The notes beneath the pieces were generated by a model that was not told where the DNA came from, ran no database searches, and saw only the letters and a program-made list of their open reading frames with translations. From a bacterium (GTDB lineage: Bacteria; Armatimonadota; Zipacnadia; Zipacnadales; UBA11051): a DNA stretch of 64,000 nt. The position numbers and the translations under genes are program-made. Location: NCBI GenBank assembly GCA_030604405.1, contig JAUVVY010000004.1, positions 86,853-150,852 on the forward strand, given 5' to 3'. Of this stretch, positions 8,094 to 53,005 are shown one piece after another (positions within the stretch are counted from its first letter, which is position 1; each line of letters opens with the position of its first letter).

Positions 8094-8169
8094 AGATTGG
8101 GGACAACCCATTTCTTGTAATTTCTGTAAGTCCTACTCCTCTGCAGCAACAGGTGACTGTCCCCAATTT
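8094..8169. repeat. copy A of IR-flanked 5'-leader element (degenerate, about 76 bp)
   Basis: Arms gattggggacaacccatttc ... caggtgactgtccccaattt with interior atttctgtaagtcctactcct. This is related to copies at 11980 and 22321. It ends about 20 nt before AGGAGG and the ATG of the 8181 gene. Confidence 0.55.
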
Positions 8170-8180
8170 AGCCAGGAGGA

Positions 8181-11100: not shown

Positions 11101-11978
11101 TTGTGGTGCTGGCAATCGAGACGAAGCTGGGCACGGACCTCGTTGTGAGCCAGCTTGAGCCGGCTGAGATCGAGATTGACACTCCGGCAGGCAAGCTGCA
11201 AACTGATGCCGCAGTCGCCGTTATATCCGTCCAGGACGGCCGCGTCGCGTTCGCCGCCGCCGCTGCAGGAAGCATGCTGCGGCTGAATGGGAAAGAACCG
11301 CCTATGGAGGAATTGCAGCGAGATTCAGCACTTGGCGAGCAGGCGAGTGCAAGCCCCGTTTCTGCCTCTTCAAGGGAGCCCTGGGCAAAGCCGATGTGGG
11401 TGATTCACCGAGGCGGCGAAGACGGCGTGCCGGAAAACACGATGGTGGCGATTAAAGACTCCGTAGAACTCGGGGCCAAGTATATCGAGATTGACCTCCA
11501 TGCCACCGCAGACGGCAAGATAGTGCTCTTGCATGATGAACTCGACCGCACCACCACCGGCACCGGCAAGCTATCTGAGTACACCTGGGAGCAGGTTAAG
11601 GACCTCGACGCCGGCTCGTGGAAGGACCCCGAATTCAGCCACGCCCGCATACCGTTGCTGTCGGAGGTGCTCGCGTACTGCAAAGAGCATGAGGTAAAGA
11701 TATTGCTCGACATCAAGGACCCCAACGCCGCAGGCGCCAACCTTTACGAACTCCTCGAACGCCACGATATGGTTCAGGACGCCCGGGTCTATATGCTCGC
11801 CGGCGCTTCCCAGCCTGCGGTGAAGGCCGCTTTGGATCCGCGTGTGGTGCAATTCCCCGGCAGCCTGGTTCAGCCGTGGGGCAATGATACGCCCGCTCAA
11901 AAGATGCAGCAGGCGCTGGATAACGAAAAGTCCATGGGCGCCCTTCTGCGCTCGTACCGGCCTGTGCTGGACTTCTAG
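8181..11978 (+). CDS. secreted multidomain protein: heparinase II/III-like polysaccharide lyase domain, CBM-like beta-sandwich, C-terminal glycerophosphodiester phosphodiesterase (GDPD) domain
   Basis: Signal peptide MTMSAQNIFVAVLIIVVLSAVNSFA. Cys4 cluster CFQCPAC...CRLCG. Heparinase II/III C-terminal signature HWGGHHQSDSLNLYYWQDGHELLTDFGY. CBM-like segment with EWVQHTVDF. GDPD signature VIHRGG..PENT...A....GAKYIEIDLHATADGKIVLLHDELDRTTTGTG...T..E...LDAGSW. Confidence 0.7.
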   Translation: MTMSAQNIFVAVLIIVVLSAVNSFADDVIIPADEPLMDWSPWEKYRSTVQHPAGYINAQDLENARENIKRYQWAKDYVQGIEANVVAHLEKFTPEFLEQMIPANSVQRCFQCPACRDKDLPRHPGGAWAWSVDDPEHIKCRLCGTVFPNDEYPETIVLECQSEAGKGQKFSYYGGEPFQQWGYAHCRPSFSGHVRYCKVGWSRGRAYQFALAYALTEKPEYAEVTRKILLRFAEVYPHWLLVSDYGEVADMDPHIAALNLDHLPEDELVYPPNQPNRKLYAGYWQSGKAGGGADAQGGFTQMMLQTYELAHNAKKADGTPLFSEEERIKIERDLILESCIHLYAHKGINNKSVSGRKAVGMVGVALGLPGFVRFGLEGWKLTMDDWFLADGCTPESPGYAMMTLGGMYSLAQALRDYSDPPGYVDQDGNRIDSLNLYEGKYKLVWQRMFEGLQGNLRYPPYADSYRTTALGARFCELLAANYPDNLQYLALLKAYAGDDLSKADRQTALFFRQPGLQEKETPPLRFDDNFFPILCLGQLRSGEHGRKSLALLSATHWGGHHQSDSLNLYYWQDGHELLTDFGYLWDHPMHKMISRTFAHNTGMVDLTGQKAKGRGGYVHLFHTGEKIKVMEASSHAYDKADIYRRTVVQIDHAPDNSYLVDIFRLQADGSRDLVYHGPNSDYQLSGIELQEGKIAPEEKEIRFALRFHLAGETDEIFVDDVSIKLADGTEVAVNPSITEMNEKTDKPAGWNHYSGDGAVEWGASSPGRSDDHCAYLKVTGKPKKRVNQALMHGDTKGYTGTNALQMREGSKGKVSFWIRGKAAACNVGFVMWPNDPNNPGDRQHIALASIPATEEWVQHTVDFSFERSRMDLENVKSAHSPDTWSARWQVAEDMQLSAYHCGQRGEVTCIGDGWGQRDHRNSDLGVTIPYIVRRHKPDEGISAFCTVYEGHKPDAGLVKSAFRLAVPEEQRDNVVVLAIETKLGTDLVVSQLEPAEIEIDTPAGKLQTDAAVAVISVQDGRVAFAAAAAGSMLRLNGKEPPMEELQRDSALGEQASASPVSASSREPWAKPMWVIHRGGEDGVPENTMVAIKDSVELGAKYIEIDLHATADGKIVLLHDELDRTTTGTGKLSEYTWEQVKDLDAGSWKDPEFSHARIPLLSEVLAYCKEHEVKILLDIKDPNAAGANLYELLERHDMVQDARVYMLAGASQPAVKAALDPRVVQFPGSLVQPWGNDTPAQKMQQALDNEKSMGALLRSYRPVLDF

Positions 11979-11979
11979 G

Positions 11980-12077
11980 AAATTGGGGACAGTCACCTAT
12001 TTCCTATCATCTCCGGAGTCTCCACTCCTATTCCTGTATGGGCTAGACTGGCGGAAATAGATGACTGTCCCCAATTT
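11980..12077. repeat. copy B of IR-flanked 5'-leader element (98 bp)
   Basis: Left arm aaattggggacagtcacctatttc, right arm gaaatagatgactgtccccaattt (23/24 complementary). Interior agtctccactcctattcctgtatggg. Followed by ccaggagg and the ATG at 12093. Confidence 0.65.
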
Positions 12078-12092
12078 CCAGGAGGTGATCAG

Positions 12093-16534: not shown

Positions 16535-17398
16535 CTACAGCTCCTCGATGTATGCAAGCTCTTCGACGAGCGCCTCTTCGCCGTGGAAATGCTCCAGGAG
16601 CAGCGGAATGCCCAGGTTCTTGACCTTCCTGTGTACCTCGATCGGGATGGTGCCCTTGCCGACGTCGAGGTGCTTGTCCAGGCGGCCCTCTGGCTCAAAC
16701 AGTTCGTGCCCGTTCCAGTGTACGTGGCCGATGGCTTCAGGATCTGAGAGAAAGCGCATGAGTTGCTCGACGCGCTCATCGTGGTCGGCGATGGCATGGA
16801 CCGTGCAGCAGGCGTGCGCGGTGTCGAGACAGAGCTTCAGGTTCTCATGACCCACATCGCGGTAAGACTGCAGCCAGTCATCCGGCTCGATAGCAAAATA
16901 AACGAAGTTCTCGGCGGGCGCAGAGTCCTCCCACGCCATCTCCCCGGCGGCGTTGGTCCAGTAGCGGCGGTTGTTTTCCAACATCAGCCGGAGGCCATTC
17001 TCGCCGGCTGTGTCCGCGAGCCTGCGCAGGCTTTGGATATACAGCTCGTAATCGCCGATCTCTCCGCCCGCCTGCGACTCACACACAAAGCGCTGCGGCG
17101 ACCCGTGAATGACGATCAGGCCGACGTTGGGGAGCAATTCGGCGGTCTGCCTCATCGCGTTTTCGATTATCTGCAGGCTGATGTGCCGAAACTCATTATC
17201 AACGGCCGCGTAGTTCAGACGCCCCAGTGCCGGGGTACTGTAGGGCATATGCACACTGGCGACGCGCTCTGCTATCTCCGGCGGCAGCTCGGTCATTTCC
17301 CGGCTGGCTACCTCGACCGTCAGGTCGTATCTGCACAGCATATCGGCGCCAGGCTCATGTTTAGGTTTCATGTAGATTATCCCGAGCTTCGGGGCCAT
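16535..17398 (-). CDS. sugar phosphate isomerase/epimerase family protein (xylose-isomerase-like TIM barrel), paralog 1
   Basis: DTAHAC, HVHWNGHELFEPEG motifs. The C-terminal 70 aa are near-identical to the neighbour. Confidence 0.5.
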   Translation of the reverse strand: MAPKLGIIYMKPKHEPGADMLCRYDLTVEVASREMTELPPEIAERVASVHMPYSTPALGRLNYAAVDNEFRHISLQIIENAMRQTAELLPNVGLIVIHGSPQRFVCESQAGGEIGDYELYIQSLRRLADTAGENGLRLMLENNRRYWTNAAGEMAWEDSAPAENFVYFAIEPDDWLQSYRDVGHENLKLCLDTAHACCTVHAIADHDERVEQLMRFLSDPEAIGHVHWNGHELFEPEGRLDKHLDVGKGTIPIEVHRKVKNLGIPLLLEHFHGEEALVEELAYIEEL

Positions 17399-17426
17399 CT
17401 ACAGATGTCACCTCCGCGCTTTTTCA

Positions 17427-18287
17427 CTATAGCGCGGCGATATATGCCAGTTCTTCGACCAGCGCCGCTTCGCCGTGAAAATGCTCCAGAACGACAGGGA
17501 TGCCCAGGTTCTTGACCTTCCGGTGCACCTCGATCGGGATGGTGCCCTTGCCGACGTTGAGATGCTTATCCAGGCGGCCTTCGGGTTCAAACAGCTCGTG
17601 CCCGTTCCAGTGTACGTGGCCGATGGCCTCAGGACGCTCCAGATAACTCAGCAGCACCCCTGGGCGCTGGGCATGGTCCTCAAAGGTGTGAGCATAGGTG
17701 CAGGCATGAGCGGTGTCCAGGCAGAGCTTGAAGTTTTCATGGCCCGCGTCATCATACGCCGCCAGCCAGTGCTCCGGCGTGCATCCGAAATAGCGCATAT
17801 CCGGAGTGGCCACGCCGTCTTCCCAGGAGAACTCGCCCGCCGCGTTGACCCAGTAGGCGTTGTTGTTCTCCAAGGTCAGAAGCAGGCCGTGCTCAGCGGA
17901 GAAATCTGCCAGCTCGCGCAGGGCCGAGATGAATAGCTCGTAGTCGCCGATGCGGCCGCCGGCGTGTTCGTGTGCGACCCAGCGATATGGCGCGCCGTGG
18001 ATGACCACCAACCGCGCGCTTGGGAAGTTTTCGGCGGCAAAGACGATCCGCCCCTCGATCATCTCCATGCACAGGCGGCGGAAGTCTGGATCGGTGGCGG
18101 CGTAATTGAGCCGCCCGATGCCCGGCTCGCTCCACGGCATGTGCACGCTGTAGGCCAGATCAGCGGCTTCGGCGAGTGCCACTTCCTCGAAGCCTCTGAC
18201 TACTTCGATGCCCATGTTGTATTTGACCACGATCTCGCGGGTTACGCCGGCGTTGGGGCTGTAGCCGATGTTAAGCTCTGGTAGCAT
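17427..18287 (-). CDS. sugar phosphate isomerase/epimerase family protein (xylose-isomerase-like TIM barrel), paralog 2
   Basis: Tandem paralog of 16535..17398 with the same motifs. Confidence 0.5.
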   Translation of the reverse strand: MLPELNIGYSPNAGVTREIVVKYNMGIEVVRGFEEVALAEAADLAYSVHMPWSEPGIGRLNYAATDPDFRRLCMEMIEGRIVFAAENFPSARLVVIHGAPYRWVAHEHAGGRIGDYELFISALRELADFSAEHGLLLTLENNNAYWVNAAGEFSWEDGVATPDMRYFGCTPEHWLAAYDDAGHENFKLCLDTAHACTYAHTFEDHAQRPGVLLSYLERPEAIGHVHWNGHELFEPEGRLDKHLNVGKGTIPIEVHRKVKNLGIPVVLEHFHGEAALVEELAYIAAL

Positions 18288-18372
18288 TTGGTTGATGCAC
18301 TTTCTCGGATGTGATTAGCGAACAGAACCAACGCCCCGCCAGTGGGACGCCGCTGCGCTATAGGAACTTACC

Positions 18373-19227
18373 TCAGTCCCAGTCCAAATCCGCCACGACC
18401 GACCTGATATAGGCCAGGTCAACTTTGGCGAAGTAGTTGCGGTCGCCCTGACGCGGCGCTTCGAGGCCGATGGGGCCGTCATAGCCCTGGTCCTTCAGTA
18501 TCTCCATGAATTTGTAGTTATCAATGACGCCGTCGGAGATATGGCAGCAGATCCAGCCGCCTCCCGGTACGATATAGACGTTCTTGAGGTGCGTGTAGTA
18601 GATCTTGCCCTTGAGGATGTCGAGGGCCTCTTCGAGCGATTCACCGGTCGGGTGCAGGACGATATTGCCCATGTCAATGTTAGCGCCGACGGCGGGCGAG
18701 TCAATCATGTCCAGCAGCTTCCCGGTTGGTGCGGCGATGTCGGTCAAGGCGACCATGTGGGTCTCGAAGGCGAGGCGAGCGCCGCCTGCTTCAGCGATGG
18801 CGCCGAGGGCCTGGTAAGCTTCGGTGGCCCATTTCCAGTGCTCGTCGCTAGCCGCGCCGGAGCCGCATTTGTCCCACTCGCGGGGGTCAACGTCATCGGG
18901 GCTGATGCCGCCGCACATTGCATTGTACGTCGTCACGCCCATGTCAATTCCACGCTTGAGCACATAGCCCCAGTGCTCCACCTCAGCCTTGCGCTCGTCG
19001 GCATCGTCGGTCATGTAGTTCCCGTGCAGGGCCAGCACCACCTCGATACCTGTCCGCTGCTTCTCCTTGTCCACAAGGTCAAGGTAATCGTCGAGGGCCA
19101 TTGACTCATCCCGCGGGCGGCCGCGCATCTCCACGCCGTCATAGCCGTGTTCGACAGCTTTGTCGAAGGTGGTCTCGACCGAATAACCTGTCTCGAAGTA
19201 GTTGCAGTGCATGATGAAATTAGGCAT
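18373..19227 (-). CDS. sugar phosphate isomerase/epimerase (xylose-isomerase-like TIM barrel)
   Basis: AFETHMVALTD, THLKNVY motifs. 284 aa. Confidence 0.6.
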   Translation of the reverse strand: MPNFIMHCNYFETGYSVETTFDKAVEHGYDGVEMRGRPRDESMALDDYLDLVDKEKQRTGIEVVLALHGNYMTDDADERKAEVEHWGYVLKRGIDMGVTTYNAMCGGISPDDVDPREWDKCGSGAASDEHWKWATEAYQALGAIAEAGGARLAFETHMVALTDIAAPTGKLLDMIDSPAVGANIDMGNIVLHPTGESLEEALDILKGKIYYTHLKNVYIVPGGGWICCHISDGVIDNYKFMEILKDQGYDGPIGLEAPRQGDRNYFAKVDLAYIRSVVADLDWD

Positions 19228-19326
19228 TGTCTCTCAACTCTTTTCTCACGCCTGAATTATCTGCTTTCCAGCAGGTACGCGCTTAGCCTGGCGGCAAACT
19301 CAACCGCAAAGCTGTCGGGCTAGAAA

Positions 19327-19575
19327 CTGTAATTGTACAAATTCTGCTAACGGCTGGGCCGGATTCTCCGGTGCCACCCACTGCGCACTCACACCTCCGG
19401 TGTGGGTACCCGGCACCTCCGTATGCGGCCCCTCCGCAAAACAACGTCTAAGCCTTTGAGCGCGTAGGTCGGGCTTTCCAGCCCGACAGCCGTTGTCGTC
19501 CGGAGGGGCCGCATGGAGGTGAGTTTGCCTGCAAACTCACGGCCATCCGGCCCAAGACTTGTCACAGCACCAGCG
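19327..19575. mobile_element. MITE-like structured repeat, copy 1 (truncated, about 250 bp)
   Basis: Shares about 130 bp of core with 38939..39266: ...aacgtctaa.cctttgagcgcgtaggtcgggctttccagcccgacagccgttgtcgtccggaggggccg.atgg...atccggcccaagactt.tcaca. The left end ctgtaattgtacaaattctgct resembles the terminal inverted repeat of copy 2. The right end overlaps the last four codons and stop of gene 19562..21028. Confidence 0.6.
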
Positions 19576-21028
19576 GCCGGTAGCTCCAGGACTGCATCTT
19601 GCACAGCATGGCAATGCGGCTGTCGTCGTAGAAGGGCGGCGCATTGGTTGAGCCGGCACTGGCGTTCTGGAAGATCGGGTATTGAGCGCACTCGGGCAAG
19701 CCGCCGGTGGGCTGGACGGTGACTTGCTCGGGCAACTCATTTTGCGAAAAGGCCTGAGCCAGCGCCAGCAGGACCTCGCCCGGGCCGGCATCAACGGCGT
19801 GCGCGCGAATGGCATGAGGCGTGCGGTTGTGAGCCATGATGTAAGCGTACACCGAGCGGGCGGCGATAAGGTAATTCGCGCGCAGATATGTCACCGGCGC
19901 GGCCAGCTCCGGGACCGCCTCTACAGGCCCCAGGGTGCGCCGGATTTGCAGCTTGGCGGGCAGCTTGTTGTGCCGCATGACGTGCTCGCCAAGTGTCGCT
20001 AACAAGAACAGCGCATCCGCCGTGGACACGGTCGTATCGCCGGCTTTGAGCGCGTCGAATCTCTGCATCAAATCCCGGGCCATCTGCTGCACCTGGGCGA
20101 GGGTCAGCCACTGGCCGTCCGGCTCTTCGTGGCGCACATAGTAGTCTGCCAGCTTCATGACCTCGATATCATCGCGACTTGCCAGCCACTCGGCGGCGCG
20201 CCGCGTCCACTCGAAATGGGCCTCAGAATCAGCGGCGGTGCGCATCGCCGTCTTGCGCCACTGCCTGTCATGCGGGTAGTAGCCGACCGCCCCGTGCTCT
20301 TCGGTAATTCGGAATGGAATCGTGGCCTCGTACCAGCCCCACCATTCGGAGACCACCCAACAGGTGGGATGCCCCACGACATTGACGTGGTCATAGCCCT
20401 TCTCCAACTGCCGGTCGAAGGCTTCCTGGAATTGCCGCAACTGCTGCTCGGGATCCACGGCGGGCTTTTGTCGCTCCGGGTGCAGGGGATCGTATTCGAA
20501 GCTCCAGTCACCCTGGGGACCGACGACGCGCTTGGCTCGGCCCACAAACAGCGTGTCCATGACCCACGCATTGTGCGGCATGTCATCGCCGAAGCCGCCG
20601 TTGTTCACCCGCACTCCGCCCAAGCGCACCGCATACTGGGTCGCCGGGCTGTGGTTTGCCTGGTGCTGCACGTATGCAGTCGGGAATTGGCCTGTGACCT
20701 CGGCCACTTCGTTCAGGCCCGGGATTTCGATGCTGAGTGCCTTGCTCAGAGCCGTGTCCCAGTCATCGTTGGCCCCATAGACCAGCGCCGGCTCCGGGTA
20801 GTCGAACCAGTAGTTGCCGTGGTAGCAGATGTCGTGATCGGCCAGGGCGGCGGCGACATCATGCCGCCCGTTCAGCCGCATGAACCGCGCCTTCTGTCCG
20901 GCGAAAAAAAGATTCAGCGGTACGCCGACATCGCTGTGTATCTGGCAGAGCCGCAGCAGCGCATCGTCGGATTCGGGATTGTTCGCATCTTCAACATCAA
21001 GCCCTAAGAAAACAGGTATCCTAGCCAT
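19562..21028 (-). CDS. hypothetical protein, about 488 aa, possibly carbohydrate-active
   Basis: Start moved to the internal ATG (MARIPVFLGLDVEDANN) with RBS gaaggtga; the track start is a TTG. The C-terminal codons lie inside the MITE-like element. Confidence 0.45.
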   Translation of the reverse strand: MARIPVFLGLDVEDANNPESDDALLRLCQIHSDVGVPLNLFFAGQKARFMRLNGRHDVAAALADHDICYHGNYWFDYPEPALVYGANDDWDTALSKALSIEIPGLNEVAEVTGQFPTAYVQHQANHSPATQYAVRLGGVRVNNGGFGDDMPHNAWVMDTLFVGRAKRVVGPQGDWSFEYDPLHPERQKPAVDPEQQLRQFQEAFDRQLEKGYDHVNVVGHPTCWVVSEWWGWYEATIPFRITEEHGAVGYYPHDRQWRKTAMRTAADSEAHFEWTRRAAEWLASRDDIEVMKLADYYVRHEEPDGQWLTLAQVQQMARDLMQRFDALKAGDTTVSTADALFLLATLGEHVMRHNKLPAKLQIRRTLGPVEAVPELAAPVTYLRANYLIAARSVYAYIMAHNRTPHAIRAHAVDAGPGEVLLALAQAFSQNELPEQVTVQPTGGLPECAQYPIFQNASAGSTNAPPFYDDSRIAMLCKMQSWSYRPLVL

Positions 21029-22302: not shown

Positions 22303-22320
22303 TGCTCTCACCCTTTCGGT

Positions 22321-22418
22321 AAATTGGGGACAGTCACCTATTTCTTCGCATTTCCGCAGTCTCCACTCGTATTCCTGTACGGGGTAAATTGGCTGAAATA
22401 GGTGACTGTCCCCAATTT
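22321..22418. repeat. copy C of IR-flanked 5'-leader element (98 bp, perfect 24-bp arms)
   Basis: aaattggggacagtcacctatttc ... gaaataggtgactgtccccaattt, interior agtctccactcgtattcctgtacgggg. It lies directly upstream (minus strand) of the RBS and start of 21160..22302. Its other end overlaps the stop codon of 22417..23076. Confidence 0.7.
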
Positions 22419-23076
22419 ACAGAGCCTCTAACTCCTCATTAACTGTTCTCACCATTGCATCGAGAACGGTCGCAAACCGAGTCTGTCCGTACTCCACAGT
22501 GGCATCCACGCAGTCCTCGCTGATGCCATCGAGCGCATCGGGCCTGTCGAGTTGCTCCATGTCCACCAACTCGGGCCTCATGTGCAGCATCGCGGAGGTC
22601 TCGATGATGCCGGCGTGTTCGCTACGAGGGTCTGTGGGGTGCAGGTTGAAGGGATCGAGCAGAATGATTTTCGATGCCGGGTGCCTGGCCATATACGCGT
22701 CAGCGATGCCCTGGATCAGCAGGCCCTGAACACGCGGGTAATGGCCGGTGCAGGCTACGATCAGCTTGAAGCCCTGCTGGTCGAGCTGGCTGAGCACATC
22801 GGCGACGATGCCGGCGATGGTCCCGTTGCTGAGCAAGAGCGAGCCGGGCCAGCCTACGTGTCCCTCAGTGCCCCAGAAGGTGGGCGGCAAGACCACGCCG
22901 CCGGTCTGCTGGGCCGCCTGCAGGCAGAGCTCGTGCGCGTGCATTGCATCGAAGCCGAACGGCAGATGGAAGCCGTGATACTCCAGCGACCCGATGGGAA
23001 AATAGACCAAAGGCGTCTGCTCGCGGACGGCTGCAAGCTCGTCCGGTCGCATTTCCTCATATCGGACTTTTCTCAT
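22417..23076 (-). CDS. creatininase-family amidohydrolase
   Basis: PIGSLEYHGFHLPFGFD (creatininase metal-binding motif). 219 aa. Confidence 0.65.
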   Translation of the reverse strand: MRKVRYEEMRPDELAAVREQTPLVYFPIGSLEYHGFHLPFGFDAMHAHELCLQAAQQTGGVVLPPTFWGTEGHVGWPGSLLLSNGTIAGIVADVLSQLDQQGFKLIVACTGHYPRVQGLLIQGIADAYMARHPASKIILLDPFNLHPTDPRSEHAGIIETSAMLHMRPELVDMEQLDRPDALDGISEDCVDATVEYGQTRFATVLDAMVRTVNEELEAL

Positions 23077-38871: not shown

Positions 38872-38938
38872 CAGTAAAGCCTCCCTGAATTGGTCTGTTC
38901 TTACGTCACAAGCAGTCCTTCGTGGAGTCGGGCTGGAA

Positions 38939-39266
38939 CTGTAGTTATGCAAATTCCTGGTCTGTGGCTCATCCATCTGTAATTGTAGGCGCTGGTGCTG
39001 TGATGCGCCTTGGGCCGGATAGGGAACGCGGATTTTGCTTTCGCAAAATCCACCCTATTCGGTCCCTCCGAAAGACAACGTCTAAACCCTTGAGCGCGTA
39101 GGTCGGGCTTTCTAGCCCGACAGCCGTTGTCGTCCGGAGGGGCCGAATGGGGATGAGAGTTTCGAAGAAACTCGAAGGGGCCCCCATCCGGCCCAAGACT
39201 TATCACGCCAGCATTGCCTGTTACGAACAAGGGCTCATCACCTACCAGAAATTTGCATAACTACAG
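38939..39266. mobile_element. MITE-like structured repeat, copy 2 (full length, about 328 bp) with 23-bp terminal inverted repeats
   Basis: Terminal inverted repeats ctgtagttatgcaaattcctggt / accagaaatttgcataactacag. About 80-nt imperfect inverted termini. Internal hairpins (gtcgggctttctagcccgac; gagtttcgaagaaactc) carry compensatory changes relative to copy 1. Track ORFs 38969..39196(-) and 19389..19691(-) share RPLRTTTAVGLESPTYALKGLDVV because both come from this repeat. Confidence 0.7.
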
Positions 39267-39350
39267 CGGAAGCCCGACCTACGCGGAGGATGGGATAATT
39301 GGCTCCCCATTTCGCGATCTACGCGACGAATCAGACAATTGCTTGTATGC

Positions 39351-42340: not shown

Positions 42341-43909
42341 CTACCGCTGCTGGTAGCTGACCACCATCTGCAGGTCGTGCACCACGGCTTCATCTTTTGC
42401 CCCTGCCGCAAGCGCCATCCCGACGCTGTTTTCGCCCTGCCTGACCAGCTCGGGGGCGACCGCCAACTCCAGCCAGCCATCCGCAATTGCGCCACCCGCC
42501 AGCGCCTCAGCGTTGAACTTGACTAGCATATCATCGGCGCCAGCCAGGCCGGTGACCTGCAGTCGCAACGTGATCTCCGGAACGATGCCCTGGTCCTTGC
42601 CCCACAGCACATCGTCGCCGACCGCGATACTGGTATCCTGCTCGGCGCCGGCTTGCAGCGACACGGGGTGTTGTGGGTCCAGCGTCGGGACCGACAGGAA
42701 GCGTTCGCCGCCGGCCAGGTAATTGTTCGCGTGTTGGACGCCGCGGTAGTTGACGTAGTAGTGCTTGGTCAACCCGCGTAGGGTCTGCGGCTCGCCGAGC
42801 TCGGACCACAGCGGATGGCGCGGATTGAACACGTTAAAGATATAGACACCGTCGCCGCCGGATTCCCACACGCTCATCGCCCGTGCCCGGTACGCCTCAA
42901 GCTTGTTACGCGCCTTGCCGGCCTCTCCCTTGACGCGCGAATCGCTCAGACACGGATAGACTGGCACACCGTACTTGTGACCCAGTTCGACGGTGTCTTG
43001 CCAGGACGAAAGCTTCATGTAGCCGGTCGGGATCAGGATGTCGAAGAGGCCTTCCTCAAGCCAGAGCTGCAGATCAAAGCCGACGCCGCGGCAATATCCC
43101 ACCGAGTCAGGCACGCGCACAGCAATCAGGATCGGCCTGCCGCGCTCCTGGCCCACCTGATCGCACATCGCCCGCACGCGTCGCAGCAATTCGGTCATCT
43201 GTCCGCGATCCTCGTCGCTCGCCTCTCCGCTGAATGCAGGCCCCTTGAAGAAACACAGATGCCGGAAGAAGTCCAGCTCAATGCCGTCAACGTCATAGCG
43301 CTTGCAGACGTCTTCGATGATGGCAAAGGCCTTGTCCCGCACCTCCTGGTGTCCGAAATCGGCGGAGGTCCACGTGCGACACCTGGGCTCGTTGTCCTCA
43401 GTGCCGATCAGATACTCCGGATGGTCCAGCTTCCACTGCGACCTGAATTTGACGTTACTGTAGTCATGCGTGTCGTTCATCCGCATGGACCAGAATATCT
43501 CGATACCATTTTGCCGGCAGAAATCAGTCATGACCTCCAGATTGTCGGTGCCCTGCGCAATAAACCTGGCAGCCATCGTTCCGTCAGGCGCATTGACTTC
43601 GCACGCTCTGGAATTGTGGCTGAAATAGGCAAAGCTCTGGGCAGTTGAATAGAAGATGGTGTCCACGTGGGTGCCCAGCAGCGGGGTAGTGCGCAGGTCG
43701 AGGAATTCCTGCCGGGTCGTCGGCTTCCATGAATCGTCGCCATCATTGTTGAAGATGATGCGTCGGGTCCGAGAAGCGGCTTGCTTGCGCAATTCTTTCA
43801 TCTCTTCACACCTCACTGGGGTCGAAAAATGGGTTGCGACCACGAAGACCACGGCGAGCAGCATCAGTGTCCAACGCACGGTAAAGCCCTGCACCAAGAC
43901 CATTGTCAT
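42341..43909 (-). CDS. putative glycoside-hydrolase-like TIM-barrel protein with N-terminal signal anchor, paralog 1
   Basis: 522 aa. N-terminal TM/signal. IIFNNDG, IFWSMRMNDTHD, DGIELDFFRH motifs shared with the neighbour. Confidence 0.5.
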   Translation of the reverse strand: MTMVLVQGFTVRWTLMLLAVVFVVATHFSTPVRCEEMKELRKQAASRTRRIIFNNDGDDSWKPTTRQEFLDLRTTPLLGTHVDTIFYSTAQSFAYFSHNSRACEVNAPDGTMAARFIAQGTDNLEVMTDFCRQNGIEIFWSMRMNDTHDYSNVKFRSQWKLDHPEYLIGTEDNEPRCRTWTSADFGHQEVRDKAFAIIEDVCKRYDVDGIELDFFRHLCFFKGPAFSGEASDEDRGQMTELLRRVRAMCDQVGQERGRPILIAVRVPDSVGYCRGVGFDLQLWLEEGLFDILIPTGYMKLSSWQDTVELGHKYGVPVYPCLSDSRVKGEAGKARNKLEAYRARAMSVWESGGDGVYIFNVFNPRHPLWSELGEPQTLRGLTKHYYVNYRGVQHANNYLAGGERFLSVPTLDPQHPVSLQAGAEQDTSIAVGDDVLWGKDQGIVPEITLRLQVTGLAGADDMLVKFNAEALAGGAIADGWLELAVAPELVRQGENSVGMALAAGAKDEAVVHDLQMVVSYQQR

Positions 43910-44079
43910 CAGCCCTTCCTTGTATGCTTTATGCCTCAGGCCCGAACAGCATCAGGCGCTGGCCCACCTGCACGCCCGGCAGGTCAGCCTCGTCCGGTGA
44001 GCGGGAGACCACATTCATCTGATTTCTTCCTTTCAACGTGCACAGATTCAGCTCCCTTCAGGTGCACTGGCCGGCGCGG

Positions 44080-45633
44080 CTAATCGTACGTGACCCACAA
44101 CTGCAAGTCCTTGATTGTCACCGGCTGTCTCGCGTCCGGCGCAAGCTGCAAGGCCATATCGTTGTCGCCGCGCTGAAGTTGCGTCGGCGCGGCCGCAAAC
44201 TCCAGCCATCCGTCTGCCAGCGTCCCATCACCTTGCGGCTGGCCGTTCAGGCTCACGTGCAAGTGCCTCGCCTTGTCGAGGCCTTCCACACACACCCTCA
44301 GGCGCAAACCAGGCTTGAGGCCCTTTTCCATCGCATCCTCGAGGTCCTCGCCGCAGGCCAGTGTCGTCTCGGCGGCTTCCCCGGCGGTTAGCTCAACGGG
44401 ATGATCCGGTGACAAGGTGGGCACGTCTATAAACTCCTCGCCGTCGCGCAGGTAGGACGTTGCCGCGCGGTCCCCCCGCACAGTCACGTGGTAAACCTTC
44501 TCCAGCGGCTGCAGAGTCTCAGGATCGCCGAGTTCACGCCAGATGCTTGCGGTGGGCTTGAAGATGTGGTGGTAGTTGAACAGATAGACCCCGTCGGCGC
44601 CGCAATTCCAGATATTGGTGGCCCGCGCCCGCATACACTCCGTCTGGTTGCGAATGTCGTCCTGCCATTCTGCATCAGGCCGGCCCCGGACCCGCGACTC
44701 GCTCAGGCATGGGTACACCCGCACCCCATACCTGTGCCCCAGTTCCACGCTGTACTCCCACGGATTGAGCTGGAAATAGCCGCTGGGAATGAGCAGGTCG
44801 AACAAGCCTTGTGCCAGCCACGTTTCCAGATCAAGGCCGACTGCGGAGCAGTAGTCCAGCGAGTCGGGCACTCTGACGGCGATAAGGATCGGCCGCTGAC
44901 GACTGGCCCCTACTTCGTCCCCCATCCCGCGCACCCGCTGCACAAACTCGGTCATCTTGTCGAGGTGTTTCTGCGTCAGCGGCTCGCCGTAAGCCACCTC
45001 TCTGAAGAAAAGGCAATGGCGGAAGAAGTCGAGTTCGATGCCGTCCACCTCGTAGCGGCGGCAGACATCTTCGATGATGGCAAACGCCCGCTCGCGCACT
45101 TCATCCTGGCCATAGTCCACCGCCGACCACGCCCTGCCCTCGCCGACGCCGGGCAGCCGCTGGCCCTGGCTGCCGAACAGGTACTCGGGGTGGTCCTGCT
45201 TGAACTGCGGGAAGAGCTGCGGGTAGTACAGCTCCCCGTCTTGCACCTGCCCGTCATGCACGTCGTTCATTCGCATTGACCAGAATATCTCGATGCCGCT
45301 TTGGCGGCAGTAGTCCACCATGATCTCCAGCGGATCGGTGCCTGCGGCGATGAGGTCGGCTGTGAGGTTGTGTTCGAAGATGCCTTCCTTGGTGGTGAAG
45401 ACCTCTGCAATGTTGCTCTGGTGAGTGAATAGGCCAAAGCCGGAGCTCCAGTCGCAGTAGAATATGGTGTCCACCTGCGAGCCCTGTAGCGGCGAGGTGT
45501 GGTGCCGCAGGATCTCCTGGACCATCGCCTCCTTACCGCTCACCTGCTGGCTGAGGTACACCACCTCGTTGCCGTCGTTGTTCATGATGATGCGGCGCTG
45601 GCGCGCCGCGGCCTCTTTCCTGAGCTCTTTCAT
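44080..45633 (-). CDS. putative glycoside-hydrolase-like TIM-barrel protein, cytoplasmic paralog 2
   Basis: 517 aa. Same motifs (IIMNNDG, IFWSMRMNDVHD, DGIELDFFRH). No signal peptide. RBS gaggag. Confidence 0.5.
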   Translation of the reverse strand: MKELRKEAAARQRRIIMNNDGNEVVYLSQQVSGKEAMVQEILRHHTSPLQGSQVDTIFYCDWSSGFGLFTHQSNIAEVFTTKEGIFEHNLTADLIAAGTDPLEIMVDYCRQSGIEIFWSMRMNDVHDGQVQDGELYYPQLFPQFKQDHPEYLFGSQGQRLPGVGEGRAWSAVDYGQDEVRERAFAIIEDVCRRYEVDGIELDFFRHCLFFREVAYGEPLTQKHLDKMTEFVQRVRGMGDEVGASRQRPILIAVRVPDSLDYCSAVGLDLETWLAQGLFDLLIPSGYFQLNPWEYSVELGHRYGVRVYPCLSESRVRGRPDAEWQDDIRNQTECMRARATNIWNCGADGVYLFNYHHIFKPTASIWRELGDPETLQPLEKVYHVTVRGDRAATSYLRDGEEFIDVPTLSPDHPVELTAGEAAETTLACGEDLEDAMEKGLKPGLRLRVCVEGLDKARHLHVSLNGQPQGDGTLADGWLEFAAAPTQLQRGDNDMALQLAPDARQPVTIKDLQLWVTYD

Positions 45634-46974: not shown

Positions 46975-49323
46975 TTACTGCTGGCCCTCTAGCTCGACCA
47001 AGGCCGCCTCGATCGCCTCCCGCACGACCGGCAGCTTCTCTACGACCAGGCGGGAGCGGAGGGGCTGGATGGCGCGCACGTCGCCCAGCTTGCCCAAGGC
47101 CTCCGCCGCTGGACGGCGCACTCCGGCGTATTTGTCCCTTAAGCCGAATATGAGTGGCTCAACTGCGCGGCGGTCGCCAAACTTGGCCAACGCCTCCGCC
47201 GCCGTCCGAAAGAGATAGGGCTGATCGCGATCCAACGCAGAGATGAGAGGCTCGATGGCCCGGTCGTCCCCGATCTCCCCCAGCGCCTTTGCCGCGGCAA
47301 CGCTTGTGAAGAGAGGCTGCTGGTTCAATAGCATGATAAGTGGCTCGACGGCACGCGGGTCCCCAAGTGCGCCGAGCGCTTTCACCGCATCGCGACAGAA
47401 TTGCGAGCTTGCGACTACGTGTGCCACCAGCGGCTCCAGTGCACGCGCATCGCCAAGTTTGCCCAACGCCTCCGCCGCCCTGAAGCTCCGCCATTTGTCG
47501 CCGGACTCGAAGAATGGCAGCACGTACGGAATTGCCCGCGGATCGCCCAGCTTTCCCAGCGCGCCTACCGCAGAGCTCTGGACCTCCTTATGGTCATCGT
47601 TGGTGGCCGCGAACAGCGGCTCTATCGCGCGCGGATCGCCGATCTTACCAAGCGCCCACGCCGAGGCCTTGCGCACCTCAAACCCCGGGTCCTTCAGAGC
47701 GGCTATGAGTGGCTCAACTACCTGCGGGTCGGCGATGTCAGCCAGGGTACTGGCAGCGGTACACCGCACTTTCACGTCCTCGTCTTCGTCCTGCAACAGG
47801 CCGATGAGTAGCTTTGCCGCCTGGGGACTGCCGTTGTAGGCCAGAGCCCCCGCCGCGCGATAGCGGAGGTTGTCGTCCTCGTCCTTCATGACGCCGACTA
47901 GTAGCTCCAGCGCCCGCGGGTCGCCGCTGTGACTCAACGCGTAGTTCGCATCGAATCTGCCATACCTCTTGCGTGTCTTGAAGGCTGCTACCAGAGGCTC
48001 GGTGCCACGGGGATCCCCAATCGCGGCCAATGCCGAAGCCGCAGCATTGCTGACATCGTTATCTTCATCCTCTAGTGTAGCGATGAGGGGCTCCACAGCT
48101 CTGGGGTCGCCAAACTCGCACAATGCAGATGCCGCGCACCGCCGCACGTCCTTGTCCTCATCCTCCAAAGTTGCCATTACTGGCTCGACCGCCTGCAAGT
48201 CGCCGATCGTCCCCAGTGCTGTCGCTGCGGCGGAACGAACGCGGTTGGCTTCATCTTTCAGTGCGACTATGAGCGGCTCGACGGCCCGCGGGTCCCCGAG
48301 CTTGCCCAGCGCCACTGCTGCGTATGCGCCCACCCTCGGATTCTCATCTTCTAGTGCGACTATCAGCGGCTGCAGTGCCCGTATGTCACAAAGCCAGCAT
48401 AGTCCCTCCGCCGCGCACCTGCGGACATCACTATCCTCGTCACCTAGTGCGGTGATGACTGGCTCGACCGCCCGCTTGTCGCCTAGCCAGCCCACCGAGA
48501 ATGCGGCAGCCCTGCGAACGCGGCTATCTTCATCCTTCAATGCGGCGATGAGCGGCTCGATAGCCCGCTCGTCGCCGACATCGCGTAACGCGTAGGCCGC
48601 AGCCCTGCGAATATCGCTATCATCATCTTGCAAGGCAACAATGAGAGGTTCAACAGCCTGCGGGTCGCCCAGTTCGGATAACGCGTTCGCGGCCGCCGAT
48701 ACGACACCGCTATTCTCATCCTGCAAGGCGGCAATCAGTTGCTCGACACTGCGCTGATCGCGAAGTTCGCCCAGTGCTCGGGCCACGGCCTCCCGCACCT
48801 GCGGACTGTGATCCGTGAATATGGAGAGAAGCGGCTCGACAGCTCGTCTATCGCGGGCTTCGGCCAATGCCTCTGCCGCGCCCACGCGAACAAGCTCGGA
48901 CTCATCGCCCAAGGCAGCCAGGAGGGGTGCAAACGCCGGCTCACCCATTCGCCCCAGGGCCTGTGCGGCTTCCTGGCCTGGCGATGTAGGCGCCGGCCCA
49001 CTGTCTGTCCACGAGTGGGTGCTTTTAGTGGGCGTTCTATCACCTAGTGTCTCCAGCAAGGCCAGTATGGACCCTTTGCCCCTCAAGCCCTTGCGCCCCA
49101 TCTCCGTCACGGTGTCAGATTTTTCGGTCGCGCTGCCGGTCCGCAGTATGGCTATATACGCCTTCTCGGCATCCGGTGCTTCCGCTTCCCACTGCAGTAG
49201 TTGGGCCTTGAGTTCGGGATGCTGATCGAGGAAGGTCAATTCGTCGGCGCCGCACGGGATCGCGCCCCACACCACCATAAGCACGAGAATCAACAGCCAC
49301 ATCCATTGACATCTCATAGACAT
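46975..49323 (-). CDS. secreted HEAT-repeat (PBS-lyase-type) protein, about 20 repeats
   Basis: Signal peptide [22 protein letters not shown] long array of about 31-aa repeats of the form A-PLI-AL-D-D--VR--AA-ALG-IGD. Confidence 0.8.
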
Positions 49324-50556: not shown

Positions 50557-51651
50557 CTACCACTCTCTGGGGTCGGGAACTTCCACCGGCTCGCTGCCGG
50601 CTTCGGCCGACATATGCGCGCAGATGCCCGGAAGCGTCATGTCCAGGGCCTCATAGACATCAATCGGCGGGTCGGTGTCATTGATAATAGACTGGACGAA
50701 ATCGTCCACCATGAAGTACTCGCTGCTGCCGTGTCCGCCGGTCAGTGCCTCGGGCGGCGCGCCGGGGTGGTCGGCGTCACAGTCGAAGAGCATCGGCCCG
50801 CTGAGCTTGTCGTACTTTTCGCGGTACAGCCGGTGCGGGCTGGCCGTGGTGACGGTGCCAAAGCGCGATGACTCGATCTGCCCCTCGGTGCCGTAGATGG
50901 TGAACCAGTGATGTGGCGGCTGCTTGGCTACCGAAAAGCTGCACAGCAGCTTGAGCGTCACATTCTTGGCGGTTTTGAACAGGCCGACTTCCATATCAAT
51001 GCAGCCGATGTCCGGGCGGCGGCGGTTGCCGGTGTGCATGCCGACCGCCGTGACGCAGCGGTCGTGGCACATCTGGATGATCGGCCCCAGGTCGTGGGTG
51101 CAGTAGTAGATCGGCGGCATACTCGCGCGCCATGCCAGTTCCCCTTTCTTCCCGCCGGCGCCGTCCGCTTGCCGGACCATGCCCTCCTCGTATGGGTGCA
51201 CGTACTCAGCCTCGGCGTAGATGATCTCGCCCAGTTCGCCCGCCTCGACTATCTGGCGGTAGGTCTGCACCCAGGGAAAGTAGCTCATGTTCTCAGCGAA
51301 GCTGTACTTGGCCTCGCTGGTCTTGACCGCCGCCACCAGCGTCTGGGCTTCCTCGATGCTAGAGACCGCCGGCACCTCGCCCAGCACGTGTTTGCCCGCC
51401 TCCAGGCACGCGATGGACTGCTCGGCATGCAGCGGCAGCGGCGTGGCGATGTATATTACCTCGCAGTCGCTTTCCAGCAGCTCCTCGAAGCTGCCGTAGG
51501 CGTTGGGGACAGCGAACTCTTTTGCCGCCGCCTGTGCCTTGTCCGGATTGTGGTCGGCCACCGCGTACAGCTCGCAATCTTTGTGATGGGCAAAAACGCT
51601 GGCCGGCCCCAGTCCCCGAAACAATCCGACTACACCGATCTTCAGTGCCAT
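50557..51651 (-). CDS. Gfo/Idh/MocA family oxidoreductase (tandem paralog 1)
   Basis: MALKIGVVGLFRG. C-terminal ...PVEVPDPREW, shared with the neighbour. Confidence 0.75.
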   Translation of the reverse strand: MALKIGVVGLFRGLGPASVFAHHKDCELYAVADHNPDKAQAAAKEFAVPNAYGSFEELLESDCEVIYIATPLPLHAEQSIACLEAGKHVLGEVPAVSSIEEAQTLVAAVKTSEAKYSFAENMSYFPWVQTYRQIVEAGELGEIIYAEAEYVHPYEEGMVRQADGAGGKKGELAWRASMPPIYYCTHDLGPIIQMCHDRCVTAVGMHTGNRRRPDIGCIDMEVGLFKTAKNVTLKLLCSFSVAKQPPHHWFTIYGTEGQIESSRFGTVTTASPHRLYREKYDKLSGPMLFDCDADHPGAPPEALTGGHGSSEYFMVDDFVQSIINDTDPPIDVYEALDMTLPGICAHMSAEAGSEPVEVPDPREW

Positions 51652-51907
51652 AATCTTATGCCTCCCTTAATTGTGCTCCCATCAGGCAGATGTTTGCCTG
51701 TCACCGTTGCCGTTGCTTTTCGGAGGGGCCGCGTCGAGCGTGGCGAGCCCGGCCCACGCAGGACGCTATCCTGGCGAGATCTTCAGAGCCAAACGCTGAA
51801 TGACAACGGCTGGGCCAGCCTTGAAAGCTTCGCAAAGCTTCCTGTGACAGGCCCCTCCATTACGACTAACGACTCCAGGCCCCCGCAACATGGCAAAGCT
51901 CTCGCGC

Positions 51908-53005
51908 CTACCATTCCCTCGGATCCGGTACTGCCACCGGCTCGCCGCCGTTTTCCGCCGAGATGTGCGCGCAGATGCCCGGCAGCGTCCAATCCAGCCC
52001 CTCATAGACATCTATCGGCGGCTTGGTGTCATTGAGGATGCACTGCACAAACTCGTCCACCATGAAGTATTCGCTGGTGCCGTGACCGCCGACGGTGGCT
52101 TCCGCCGGGGCGGAGGGGTCGTTATTGGGCACATGCAACGTCATCGGCCCGCCGAGCTTGTCGTACTTCTCCCGATACAGCCGGTGCGTGCTGCAGCCGG
52201 CCTCCACCGCAAAGCGGCTCTGCTCGATCTGCCCCTCGGTGCCATAGACGCAGAACCAGTGATGCGCCGGCTCCTTGGCCGTCGCGAAGCCGCAAAGCTG
52301 CTTGATCGTGACGTTCCTGGCGGTCTTCAGCAGCGCCACTTCCATGTCAATGACGCCCAGGTCGGTTCGCCGCCGGCAGCCCGTGTGCATGCCCACTGCC
52401 GTCACGCAGCGGTCCTCAAGCCACTGCAGCAGCGGCCCTAAATCGTGGGTGCAGTAGTGTATCGGCGGCAGGCTCGCGCGCCAGGTCGGCTTGCCCTCAA
52501 CGCCGCCGCCCATGCCATCGGGCCGGCCTTCCATCAGGCTCTCGCAGTTGTGGATGTACTCGCCCTCGGCATAGATTATCTCGCCCAGTTCGCCATCGCG
52601 CACCAGGTCCCAGTACATCTGGCAATACGGAAAGTAGCACATATTCTCGGCGAAGCTATACTTCAGGCCGGACTCCCTGACGGCCTTAACTAGCTCCTGG
52701 CCGCCCTCGATGCTGGGCACCGCCGGCACCTCGCACTGCACGTGCTTGCCCGCCCGCAGCGCAGCAACCGAATGTTCCGCATGAAGCGGCGCGGGCGTAG
52801 CGACGAACACTGCGTCTATGTCGGCCTCCAGCATGTCGTCGAGTTCATCATACCGCTGCGGCACTTCGAGCCTGTCGCACAGCGCCTTGAGGAGGTCGGG
52901 ATTTCTATCCGCGACAGCGACGAGTTCGCAGTCTTTATGGTCCTTGAAGACGCTCGCTGGCCCGCTACCTCTTCCGGCACCGACTACGCCGATCCGCAGG
53001 GACAT
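51908..53005 (-). CDS. Gfo/Idh/MocA family oxidoreductase (tandem paralog 2)
   Basis: MSLRIGVVGAGRG. About 60% identical to 50557..51651, with the same C-terminus PVAVPDPREW. Confidence 0.75.
   Translation of the reverse strand: MSLRIGVVGAGRGSGPASVFKDHKDCELVAVADRNPDLLKALCDRLEVPQRYDELDDMLEADIDAVFVATPAPLHAEHSVAALRAGKHVQCEVPAVPSIEGGQELVKAVRESGLKYSFAENMCYFPYCQMYWDLVRDGELGEIIYAEGEYIHNCESLMEGRPDGMGGGVEGKPTWRASLPPIHYCTHDLGPLLQWLEDRCVTAVGMHTGCRRRTDLGVIDMEVALLKTARNVTIKQLCGFATAKEPAHHWFCVYGTEGQIEQSRFAVEAGCSTHRLYREKYDKLGGPMTLHVPNNDPSAPAEATVGGHGTSEYFMVDEFVQCILNDTKPPIDVYEGLDWTLPGICAHISAENGGEPVAVPDPREW

Follow-up and report, generated by a model that had tools for sequence, protein, structure and literature searches.

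Two repeats in a 64-kb window of contig JAUVVY010000004.1, one beginning at position 19327 and the other at 38939, are in our assessment (with a probability of about 0.68) copies of a non-autonomous element of about 330 nt, resembling a MITE (miniature inverted-repeat transposable element), that belongs to an Armatimonadota lineage and inserts in the loops of repetitive extragenic palindromic (REP) hairpins. The window is the whole stretch of 64,000 nt that was analyzed, and all positions refer to it. A MITE-like, non-autonomous transposon was one of several possibilities raised earlier from the letters of this DNA alone (the sequence-only reading), and it is the one that the further evidence favors: the element has terminal inverted repeats and, at one copy, a direct repeat on its flanks, is non-coding, occurs at non-orthologous loci, and is missing from the corresponding sites of relatives.

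The claim that the repeat is present twice is borne out. The two copies have in common an ungapped block of 108 nt that is 89% identical, blastn aligns them at 83% over 157 nt (E 2e-39), and the sequences that surround them are unrelated. Their central hairpin, GTCGGGCTTTCYAGCCCGAC, occurs in the window just twice, once per copy, against 0.04 occurrences expected by chance. Copy 2 is the complete element, 328 nt long; over nearly its full length it forms an imperfect palindrome, which carries two small side hairpins. As had been read from the sequence, it ends in 23-bp terminal inverted repeats, CTGTAGTTATGCAAATTCCTGGT (38939-38961) and ACCAGAAATTTGCATAACTACAG (39244-39266), which are complementary at 22 of 23 positions; once the flanking half-REPs are counted, the inverted repeat grows to 40 nt at 83%. 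The terminal repeat motif of the element is CTGTAGTTATGCAAATTCCTGG, and the terminal repeat of copy 2 is also found at the ends of copies at four of the comparison loci fetched from elsewhere, all of which carry numbers beginning with L (L001, L003, L005 and L010). Copy 1 is a truncated relative of copy 2, with a common core of 93 nt, and a degenerate third relic of the family lies further along the window. The true left end takes in a half REP in both copies (19314-19326 and 38927-38938, respectively). The features are as follows.

19314..19326, minus strand: copy 1 site, left half of the REP that hosts the element, with stem GTCGGGC and loop TAGAAA (from the intact REP at the orthologous locus L014).
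19327..19564, plus strand: copy 1, 'type 1', truncated at its right end (from alignment; covariance-model score 118.7 bits).
19327-19344: left terminal repeat of copy 1.
19356-19364 with 19545-19553: long-range stem of copy 1.
19368-19413: left side hairpin of copy 1.
19422-19514: 93-nt core of copy 1.
19464..19487, plus strand: inner REP of copy 1, GTAG then GTCGGGCT-TTCC-AGCCCGAC.
19519-19540: right side hairpin of copy 1.
19562..19576, minus strand: junction of copy 1 with the 3' end of gene 19562..21028 (from ortholog alignment and the inverted repeat).
38927..38938, minus strand: copy 2 site, left half of the REP that hosts the element, with stem GTCGGGC and TGGAA, one copy of the direct repeat.
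38939..39266, plus strand: copy 2, complete 'type 2', with nested long-range stems (from inverted repeats, folding and the covariance model).
39028-39053 and 39157-39173: side hairpins of copy 2.
39056-39148: 93-nt core of copy 2.
39098..39121, plus strand: inner REP of copy 2, GTAG then GTCGGGCT-TTCT-AGCCCGAC.
39267..39282, minus strand: second direct repeat CGGAA, then GCCCGAC, the host REP's right half, with the GTAG head of that REP (CTAC on the plus strand).
39283..39315, minus strand: extra spacer adjoining the head of the host REP, boundary approximate (missing from the orthologous spacer of close relatives too).
About 51697..51825, plus strand: degenerate third relic of the family (from a direct repeat and blastn).

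The relic consists of the arm motif CGGAGGGGCCGC and 75 nt with 89% identity (E 3e-23) to sequence that flanks the copy at L009, and it lies in the spacer of two tandem, co-directional Gfo/Idh/MocA paralogues on the minus strand. When a covariance model built on the 93-nt core was applied to the window and to 19 loci, no additional full copies came up in the window.

The central hairpin has the form CGCGTAG-GTCGGGCT-TTCY-AGCCCGAC, with a GTAG head, an 8-bp GC-rich stem and a 4-nt loop. It matches the definition of a GTAG-type REP, in which a GTAG head is followed by a GC-rich palindrome of 20-40 nt (PMC3733652). The REP motif is GTAGGTCGGGC. Solo copies of the same REP are found at L001:2127, L004, L006, L010:5005 and L014:5576, and the stem also exists in variants with complementary changes (GTAGCTCGGGC...GCCCGAG and GTAGGACGGGC...GCCCGTC). 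About 30 REP heads were counted in about 100 kb of loci from metagenome-assembled genomes (MAGs), which had been chosen for containing the motif, and 3 in the 64-kb window.

The REP provides the point of insertion. At the copy 2 site the minus strand reads GTAG-GTCGGGC-TTCCG-[CTGTAG...CTACAG]-TTCCA-GCCCGAC, and deleting the element and one pentamer in silico yields GTAGGTCGGGCTTCCAGCCCGAC, a variant that exists intact at L001:2127 and L010:5005. The flanking pentamers, TGGAA and CGGAA, match at 4 of 5 positions, GGAA exactly; they are direct rather than inverted, and in the predicted hairpin they make up the sole 4-nt bubble, at its base. They look like a target-site duplication, and unlike part of a monolithic palindrome. 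At other loci, each terminal repeat that was found is preceded by a REP half-stem and a loop of 4-6 nt, and its conserved part starts with GTAG (nnGTAGTTATGCA...).

A reading of the whole structure as a single monolithic palindrome was rejected: the pentamers are direct, and the orthologous site has an intact REP.

Two further features of REPs were observed in these genomes. Many REP heads in related MAGs have a conserved 5' extension, ATTCATSAACGCGTAG, and ATTCATSAACGCGTAG-like heads also resemble 39283-39315. Moreover, REP loops hold assorted small GC-rich hairpins at L002:2221, L003:1566 and 5490, L009:1377, L022:272 and others, so that filling the loops of REPs seems to be a general habit of these genomes.

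The decisive evidence comes from relatives, in which the corresponding sites are empty. At site 1, the nearest homologue of the 488-aa gene beside copy 1 (P0001) is 90% identical and lies on 157-kb contigs (L014-L016), where the gene order is the same as in the window: a URO-D-like gene, a 490-aa gene and two xylose-isomerase-like genes. The window and L014 have the left flank ggcaaRctcaaccgcaaaSc in common. In L014 the site is occupied by an intact REP, GTCGGGCTAGAAAGCCCGACCTAC, that is, GTCGGGC-TAGAAA-GCCCGAC-CTAC; in its place the window has GTCGGGC-TAGAAA and then directly CTGTAATTG.... Because the REP of L014 is intact at the point at which the window has a half REP and the element, copy 1 sits where the loop of a pre-existing REP meets its 3' stem, which is the same relative position as that of copy 2. 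At site 2, Gfo orthologues that are 96%, 88% and 82% identical (L018-L020, L021-L024 and L025-L027, respectively) stand in the same sulfatase-cupin-Gfo order, and the cupin-to-Gfo spacer is 61-70 nt in these relatives versus 479 nt in the window. Neither a REP nor the element was found at more distant orthologous loci (70-73% protein identity), which contribute no further evidence. Filled and empty sites are clean markers of recent mobility in an uncultured lineage.

A match that an aligner made between the L018 spacer and the element core was set aside as an artifact: the homologue of that spacer is already present in the left flank in the window. In more distant relatives, a unit of about 38 nt, repeated in tandem in 1-3 copies depending on the sample, occupies the spacer that separates the 490-aa gene from the isomerase gene (a variable-number tandem repeat at the same intergenic site as copy 1; L029:7473-7707, L030:2364-2674 and L031:2669-2941).

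Copy 1 lacks the right terminal repeat and the right REP half, and with them roughly 110 nt of spacer and the two final codons of the neighboring gene, 19562..21028, are missing. Orthologues of this gene end ...SWSYRPLVQNV* (490 aa), and the window protein ends ...SWSYRPLVL* (488 aa). The homology of the gene to L014 reaches window position 19565, the stop codon (19562-19564) is supplied by the element, and TCACAGCACCAGCG (19562-19575) is identical to the mirror image of the left arm of copy 2. Because the gene homology extends to 19565 and TCACAGCACCAGCG has this identity, we infer that copy 1 lost its right end by a deletion between the right arm of the element and the 3' end of the gene, via a microhomology of about 10 nt, GCACCAGYGG, that is common to both. 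Such a microhomology-mediated deletion, occurring after the insertion, would have taken all of the missing parts and clipped the two codons of the upstream gene. The sequence-only reading had credited copy 1 with the last four codons of the gene as well as its stop; the stop is indeed the element's, but the 3-4 codons next to it lie in the microhomology and are assignable to neither source. The element has in any case changed the C-terminus of a gene.

About 10 more copies, whole or partial, lie elsewhere, in other Armatimonadota MAGs and in contigs from metagenomes, at loci that are unrelated. A scan for the exact pattern in one genome per species gave six loci, which belong to two Armatimonadota MAGs, one a Candidatus Zipacnadia bin and the other an uncultured Armatimonadia bin; a metagenome scan added L009 and L010. 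The core-loop pattern matched five metagenome loci, of which L007 is a chance match, while L008 repeats L002 and L011 repeats L010. In addition, blastn over the fetched loci revealed half-elements at L005:4023-4145, L002:3928-4014, L002:7357- and, twice, in L006; against plasmids and phages it gave no match. No copy-bearing locus elsewhere is syntenic with the window, and the neighbors there are mutually unrelated: Wzy-like, nuoCD/nuoI, nuoI/nuoL, hisD/dnaE, GT4 glycosyltransferase and enolase-like genes.

The copies fall into two types and a set of rearranged forms. Type 2 (copy 2, L003 and L005b) has symmetric arms, and type 1 (copy 1, L001, L002, L005 and L009) has a common deletion of about 45 nt in the left arm; because this deletion is common to at least five loci, the deletion derivative has itself multiplied. 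Mirror-image variants, in which one arm has given way to the mirror image of the other, are found at L006:1809-1936, L006:7537-7640 and L010:4740-5035; in one, a REP is followed by the reverse complement of the 'left' arm, and in another the left arm is the reverse complement of the right arm at L009. These arm swaps indicate recombination or template switching within the palindrome.

Two observations concern where the element is found. In two other Armatimonadota MAGs it lies within strings of complex I genes (L002:1915-2170, nuoCD/nuoI; L003:6953-7200, nuoI/nuoL), implying that it is tolerated within essential operons. Separately, the Logan contigs L012 and L013 (run SRR14872665) encode the exact Gfo and isomerase proteins of the window, and the organism of the window is therefore present in that run; both contigs end upstream of these genes (by 81 and 140 nt, respectively), inside the element, as repeats cause.

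The element lacks coding capacity. Its open reading frames (ORFs), of 75-109 aa, have no homologue among 5.8 billion proteins, so that a protein search gave no candidates for further copies, and the spurious ORFs sharing RPLRTTTAVGLESPTYALKGLDVV that were noticed earlier are present in both copies. A comparison with Rfam, which had been suggested as a check, returned no hits for the whole window at gathering thresholds and no match at permissive ones either: with E values up to 10, the best sub-threshold match reached 20 bits against a threshold of 93. Promoter and terminator consensus scans of both copies likewise found nothing.

Either single strand of the element, whether DNA or RNA, folds into a single long branched hairpin with a GTAG-headed REP at its apex. 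Copy 2 reaches -201 kcal/mol as RNA of the plus strand (z -13.4), -203 kcal/mol as RNA of the minus strand (z -14.2), and -103 kcal/mol as single-stranded DNA (ssDNA; z -11.9). In the five full inner copies, 92% of cells are paired, versus 88% in shuffles and 35-47% with the partners slid, and two-sided changes occur in 8 of 60 pairs, a number reached by 0 of 500 shuffles. All but one of these eight lie in the two small side hairpins, as swaps of whole hairpins, and the remaining one in the near-invariant long stems; the RNAalifold covariation term, at +1.4, gives no support. The three stems quoted in the sequence-only reading all exist. Its proposal that they covary between copies survives in part, because the two-sided changes are real but few and fall mostly in the two side hairpins, and the hairpin that it described as conserved, gtcgggctttc(c/t)agcccgac, exists but is invariant, hence uninformative on covariation. 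Because the pairing of a DNA palindrome can be kept by arm-to-arm templated correction or by selection on ssDNA hairpins, compensatory changes can arise without proving an RNA function. By RNA folding energy, 4 of 5 copies are slightly better on the gene-sense strand and L001 on the opposite one, and G-U and A-C mismatches are about equal (roughly 8 versus 5, read by hand from the table of pairs). Across genomes, 94% of the 93-nt core is conserved, a 21-nt stretch without pairing (TCTAAACCTTTGAGCGCGTAG) included; a signal for protein binding or transposition would account for this no less well than an RNA would.

The way in which a MITE-like element comes to lie in REP loops can be outlined. 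The element inserts into the loop of an existing GTAG-type REP, where this loop meets the 3' stem, and the loop pentamer then flanks it on either side as a direct repeat, as at copy 2. An enzyme encoded elsewhere in the genome, a transposase, may move the element in trans, most simply a DDE-type insertion sequence (IS) enzyme with REP-loop specificity, like those of IS1397 and ISKpn1.

Several observations weigh against this model. The flanking pentamers match at 3 of 5 positions at L005 and poorly at L001, and with copy 1 lacking its right end, copy 2 is the sole copy with both ends good enough for a clean direct repeat. No transposase, REP-associated tyrosine transposase (RAYT) or integrase is encoded among the approximately 50 ORFs of the window, and no autonomous partner, in the form of an extra terminal-repeat pair enclosing a gene, was seen in the 258 kb of fetched loci. 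Because the relatives at site 2 lack the REP as well as the element, the two arrived there together or successively, not provably in two steps. The known copy number is low, with 2-3 copies per 64 kb in the window and a handful from the exact-pattern scans, and the frequency of half-elements and mirror arms (L006, L010, L002 and L005) implies that recombination or template switching also shapes the family. Finally, classical DDE MITEs usually insert in either orientation. Here, in 7 of 7 unrearranged copies, the GTAG strand of the inner REP is antisense to the flanking genes (two-sided p about 0.016, binomial, assuming independent insertions), which hints at a strand-specific mechanism or at selection.

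Uniform orientation would suit strand-specific transposition of ssDNA, and the repeats might accordingly be an over-grown composite of the REP or REPIN kind, built of nested palindromic modules and moved as ssDNA by an HUH enzyme (a RAYT or TIRYT) rather than by a DDE transposase. The GTAG with which the conserved part of the terminal repeat begins speaks for this, as do the canonical GTAG REPs at the center and outer flanks, the richness of the related MAG loci in the same REP, many of whose loops hold other small hairpins, and the ability of the whole element to fold as ssDNA. The literature also describes REPs set within long palindromes, as well as RAYT-like genes that have long terminal inverted repeats on either side (PMC3733652). 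Nevertheless, we consider this rather unlikely: HUH transposition proceeds without target duplication, yet the pentamer of copy 2 exactly accounts for the split REP loop; the arms are not REP hairpins, as a REPIN would have; and no RAYT was seen in the window. A further possibility, also unlikely, is a REP-loop-specific module that bears its own target, a REP, at its apex, could nest inside others of its kind (with REPs and elements alternating), and is inserted in a fixed orientation by a strand- or site-specific enzyme of the RAYT or IS110 kind rather than by a classical DDE transposase, possibly with a structured RNA. If true, this would represent a new type of REP-parasitic or REP-propagating non-autonomous element.

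Involvement of an IS110-type recombinase specific for REPs, on which the element would ride as a structured-RNA cargo, is very doubtful. The insertion position in REPs is fixed, with a short identical core on both sides; the orientation is fixed relative to the neighbors; pairing is kept by two-sided changes; and the 21-nt unpaired stretch is strongly conserved across genomes. There is also a precedent in the orphan ssr9 modules of ISPpu9 in Pseudomonas putida (PMC12288879). IS110-type elements, however, have no long terminal inverted repeats, and those found here are of 23-40 nt; an IS110 gene is not present nearby, Rfam and the promoter and terminator consensus give no match, and neither the folding energies nor the similar counts of G-U and A-C mismatches prefer one strand.

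The sequence-only reading also entertained a structured cis-regulatory leader or small RNA gene. A conserved RNA of this kind, serving sugar-metabolism genes, would suit the position of the two copies and the relic, each upstream of a xylose-isomerase-like or a Gfo/Idh/MocA gene, and it could draw on the conservation of the 93-nt core and on pairing above that of shuffled and slid controls. The genes around both copies had been described as convergent; all are instead co-directional on the minus strand, in the order 488-aa protein, copy 1, xylose-isomerase-like TIM-barrel gene, and in the order sulfatase, cupin, copy 2, Gfo/Idh/MocA gene. Because the copies are inside co-directional gene strings, both are probably transcribed within polycistronic mRNA. 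A regulatory role is nonetheless highly improbable, and is largely refuted by the empty sites, since close relatives, whose flanking proteins are 90-96% identical, have no element upstream of the orthologous genes. The neighbors elsewhere (nuo, hisD, Wzy-like, glycosyltransferase and enolase-like genes) are unrelated, no strand is consistently favored, and the searches for RNA families, promoters and terminators and the covariation term lend nothing to it. The 64-kb window is moreover very dense in sugar genes, with at least 6 Gfo/Idh/MocA and 3 xylose-isomerase-like genes. Given this density, the unrelated neighbors elsewhere and the absence of the element from the orthologous sugar genes in close relatives, the association probably reflects the gene content of the region. 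The hairpin of about -200 kcal/mol could still alter read-through or mRNA stability, as a side effect rather than as an evolved regulator.

Just two core-containing copies exist in the window, but a simple segmental duplication (the outcome that would have refuted the sequence-only reading) or chance similarity can be dismissed: the flanks are unrelated, E is 2e-39, and copies occur at non-orthologous loci in other genomes.

The MITE-like element that we favor can be compared with three groups of known systems. Bacterial MITEs that fold into long hairpins include Correia/NEMIS, ERIC/IRU, RUP and others (PMC3184786). Like them, the element is shorter than 400 nt, non-coding and intergenic, has terminal inverted repeats and, at copy 2, a flanking direct repeat, forms a long hairpin from end to end, is polymorphic for presence or absence between relatives, generates spurious ORFs, and can become fused to the ends of genes. 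Unlike them, it targets the loop of a REP hairpin instead of a short TA-like site, carries a REP at its own center, has no cognate IS assigned and a low known copy number, and is hosted by the phylum Armatimonadota.

The second group comprises ISs that target REPs, including IS1397 and ISKpn1 of the IS3 family and IS621, ISPpu9 and ISPpu10 of the IS110 family, among others (PMC1525189, PMC12288879). They too insert specifically inside REP palindromes, with a short sequence repeated at both junctions, but they are autonomous, 1-1.5 kb long and encode a transposase, whereas the present element has 328 nt and no gene; the IS110 members also differ in having no long terminal inverted repeats. The orphan ssr9 modules of ISPpu9 resemble the element in being non-autonomous, structured, non-coding and located inside REPs at several loci (PMC12288879). 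Unlike it, they are bounded by A'/B' boxes in place of long terminal inverted repeats, and ssr9 has been demonstrated to be a small RNA (PMC12288879), whereas our element is known from DNA sequence alone.

The third group is that of GTAG-type REPs and their composites, such as bacterial interspersed mosaic elements (BIMEs), REPINs, nested REPs and TIRtron repeats (PMC3733652, PMC3116915). The inner and outer hairpins resemble these in their GTAG head, GC-rich stem of 7-8 bp and loop of 4-6 nt, in stem variants with complementary changes, and in their location downstream of genes and between co-directional ORFs. The element differs from a REP in being ten times its size, in its direct repeat resembling a target duplication, and in having no demonstrated link to a RAYT. 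A REPIN consists of two inverted REP units with a short spacer that form one hairpin of about 100 nt (PMC3733652, PMC3116915); the arms here (e.g. TTATGCAAATTCCTGGTCTGTGG...) are not self-complementary REP units, and there is a single central REP in 328 nt. Palindrome-associated transposable elements (PATEs) derived from IS200/IS605 have subterminal hairpins and neither terminal inverted repeats nor a target duplication, whereas the present element has long terminal inverted repeats and, at copy 2, a flanking direct repeat. REPs nested within longer palindromes occur in Anabaena variabilis (PMC3733652).

The ingredients are therefore known: long-hairpin MITEs, REPs, ISs that target REPs, and REPs in longer palindromes. 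What is new is the family itself, its host phylum, and a gene-less inserter into REP loops with a REP at its own center. The literature searched contained no paper on REPs in Armatimonadota, and both REP hairpins and a miniature element that targets them are now documented there. By placing hairpins of about -200 kcal/mol inside gene strings, including the nuo operons of relatives, the element may affect operon expression; it opens no new class of regulator. It also breaks short-read assemblies and yields spurious ORFs, which matters for the annotation of MAGs.

Other features of the window were recorded along the way. Tandem arrays of paralogues lie at 16535-19227 (minus strand), 50557-53005 (minus strand) and 43246-45519, and consist of a trio of xylose-isomerase-like TIM genes, a pair of Gfo/Idh/MocA genes and a pair of genes of about 520 aa that carry no annotation; the Gfo/Idh/MocA pair has repeat blocks that are 71-90% identical at a spacing of about 1351 nt. 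A 782-aa ORF at 46975-49323 (minus strand) contains at least 17 tandem repeats of 93 nt (31 aa) of the HEAT/PBS-lyase type. At 53376-56013 (minus strand), a BsuBI/PstI-type restriction endonuclease and an Eco57I-like methylase are followed by an EVE-domain gene; the GC content of this segment is 0.53 versus about 0.60 elsewhere, and it is probably a horizontally acquired restriction-modification island.

Finally, the window contains a second, unrelated palindromic family, with two inverted-repeat units of about 110 nt at 11971-12086 and 22316-22423 (AAATTGGGGACAGTCACCTATTTC ... GAAATAGGTGACTGTCCCCAATTT), 87% identical and with their interior in common, and a solo arm at 8143-8170. In two cases an arm of this family ends a few bases 5' of the ribosome-binding site of a plus-strand gene (ATG at about 8187 and about 12093), and the family could be another MITE, a REPIN-like element or an operator.

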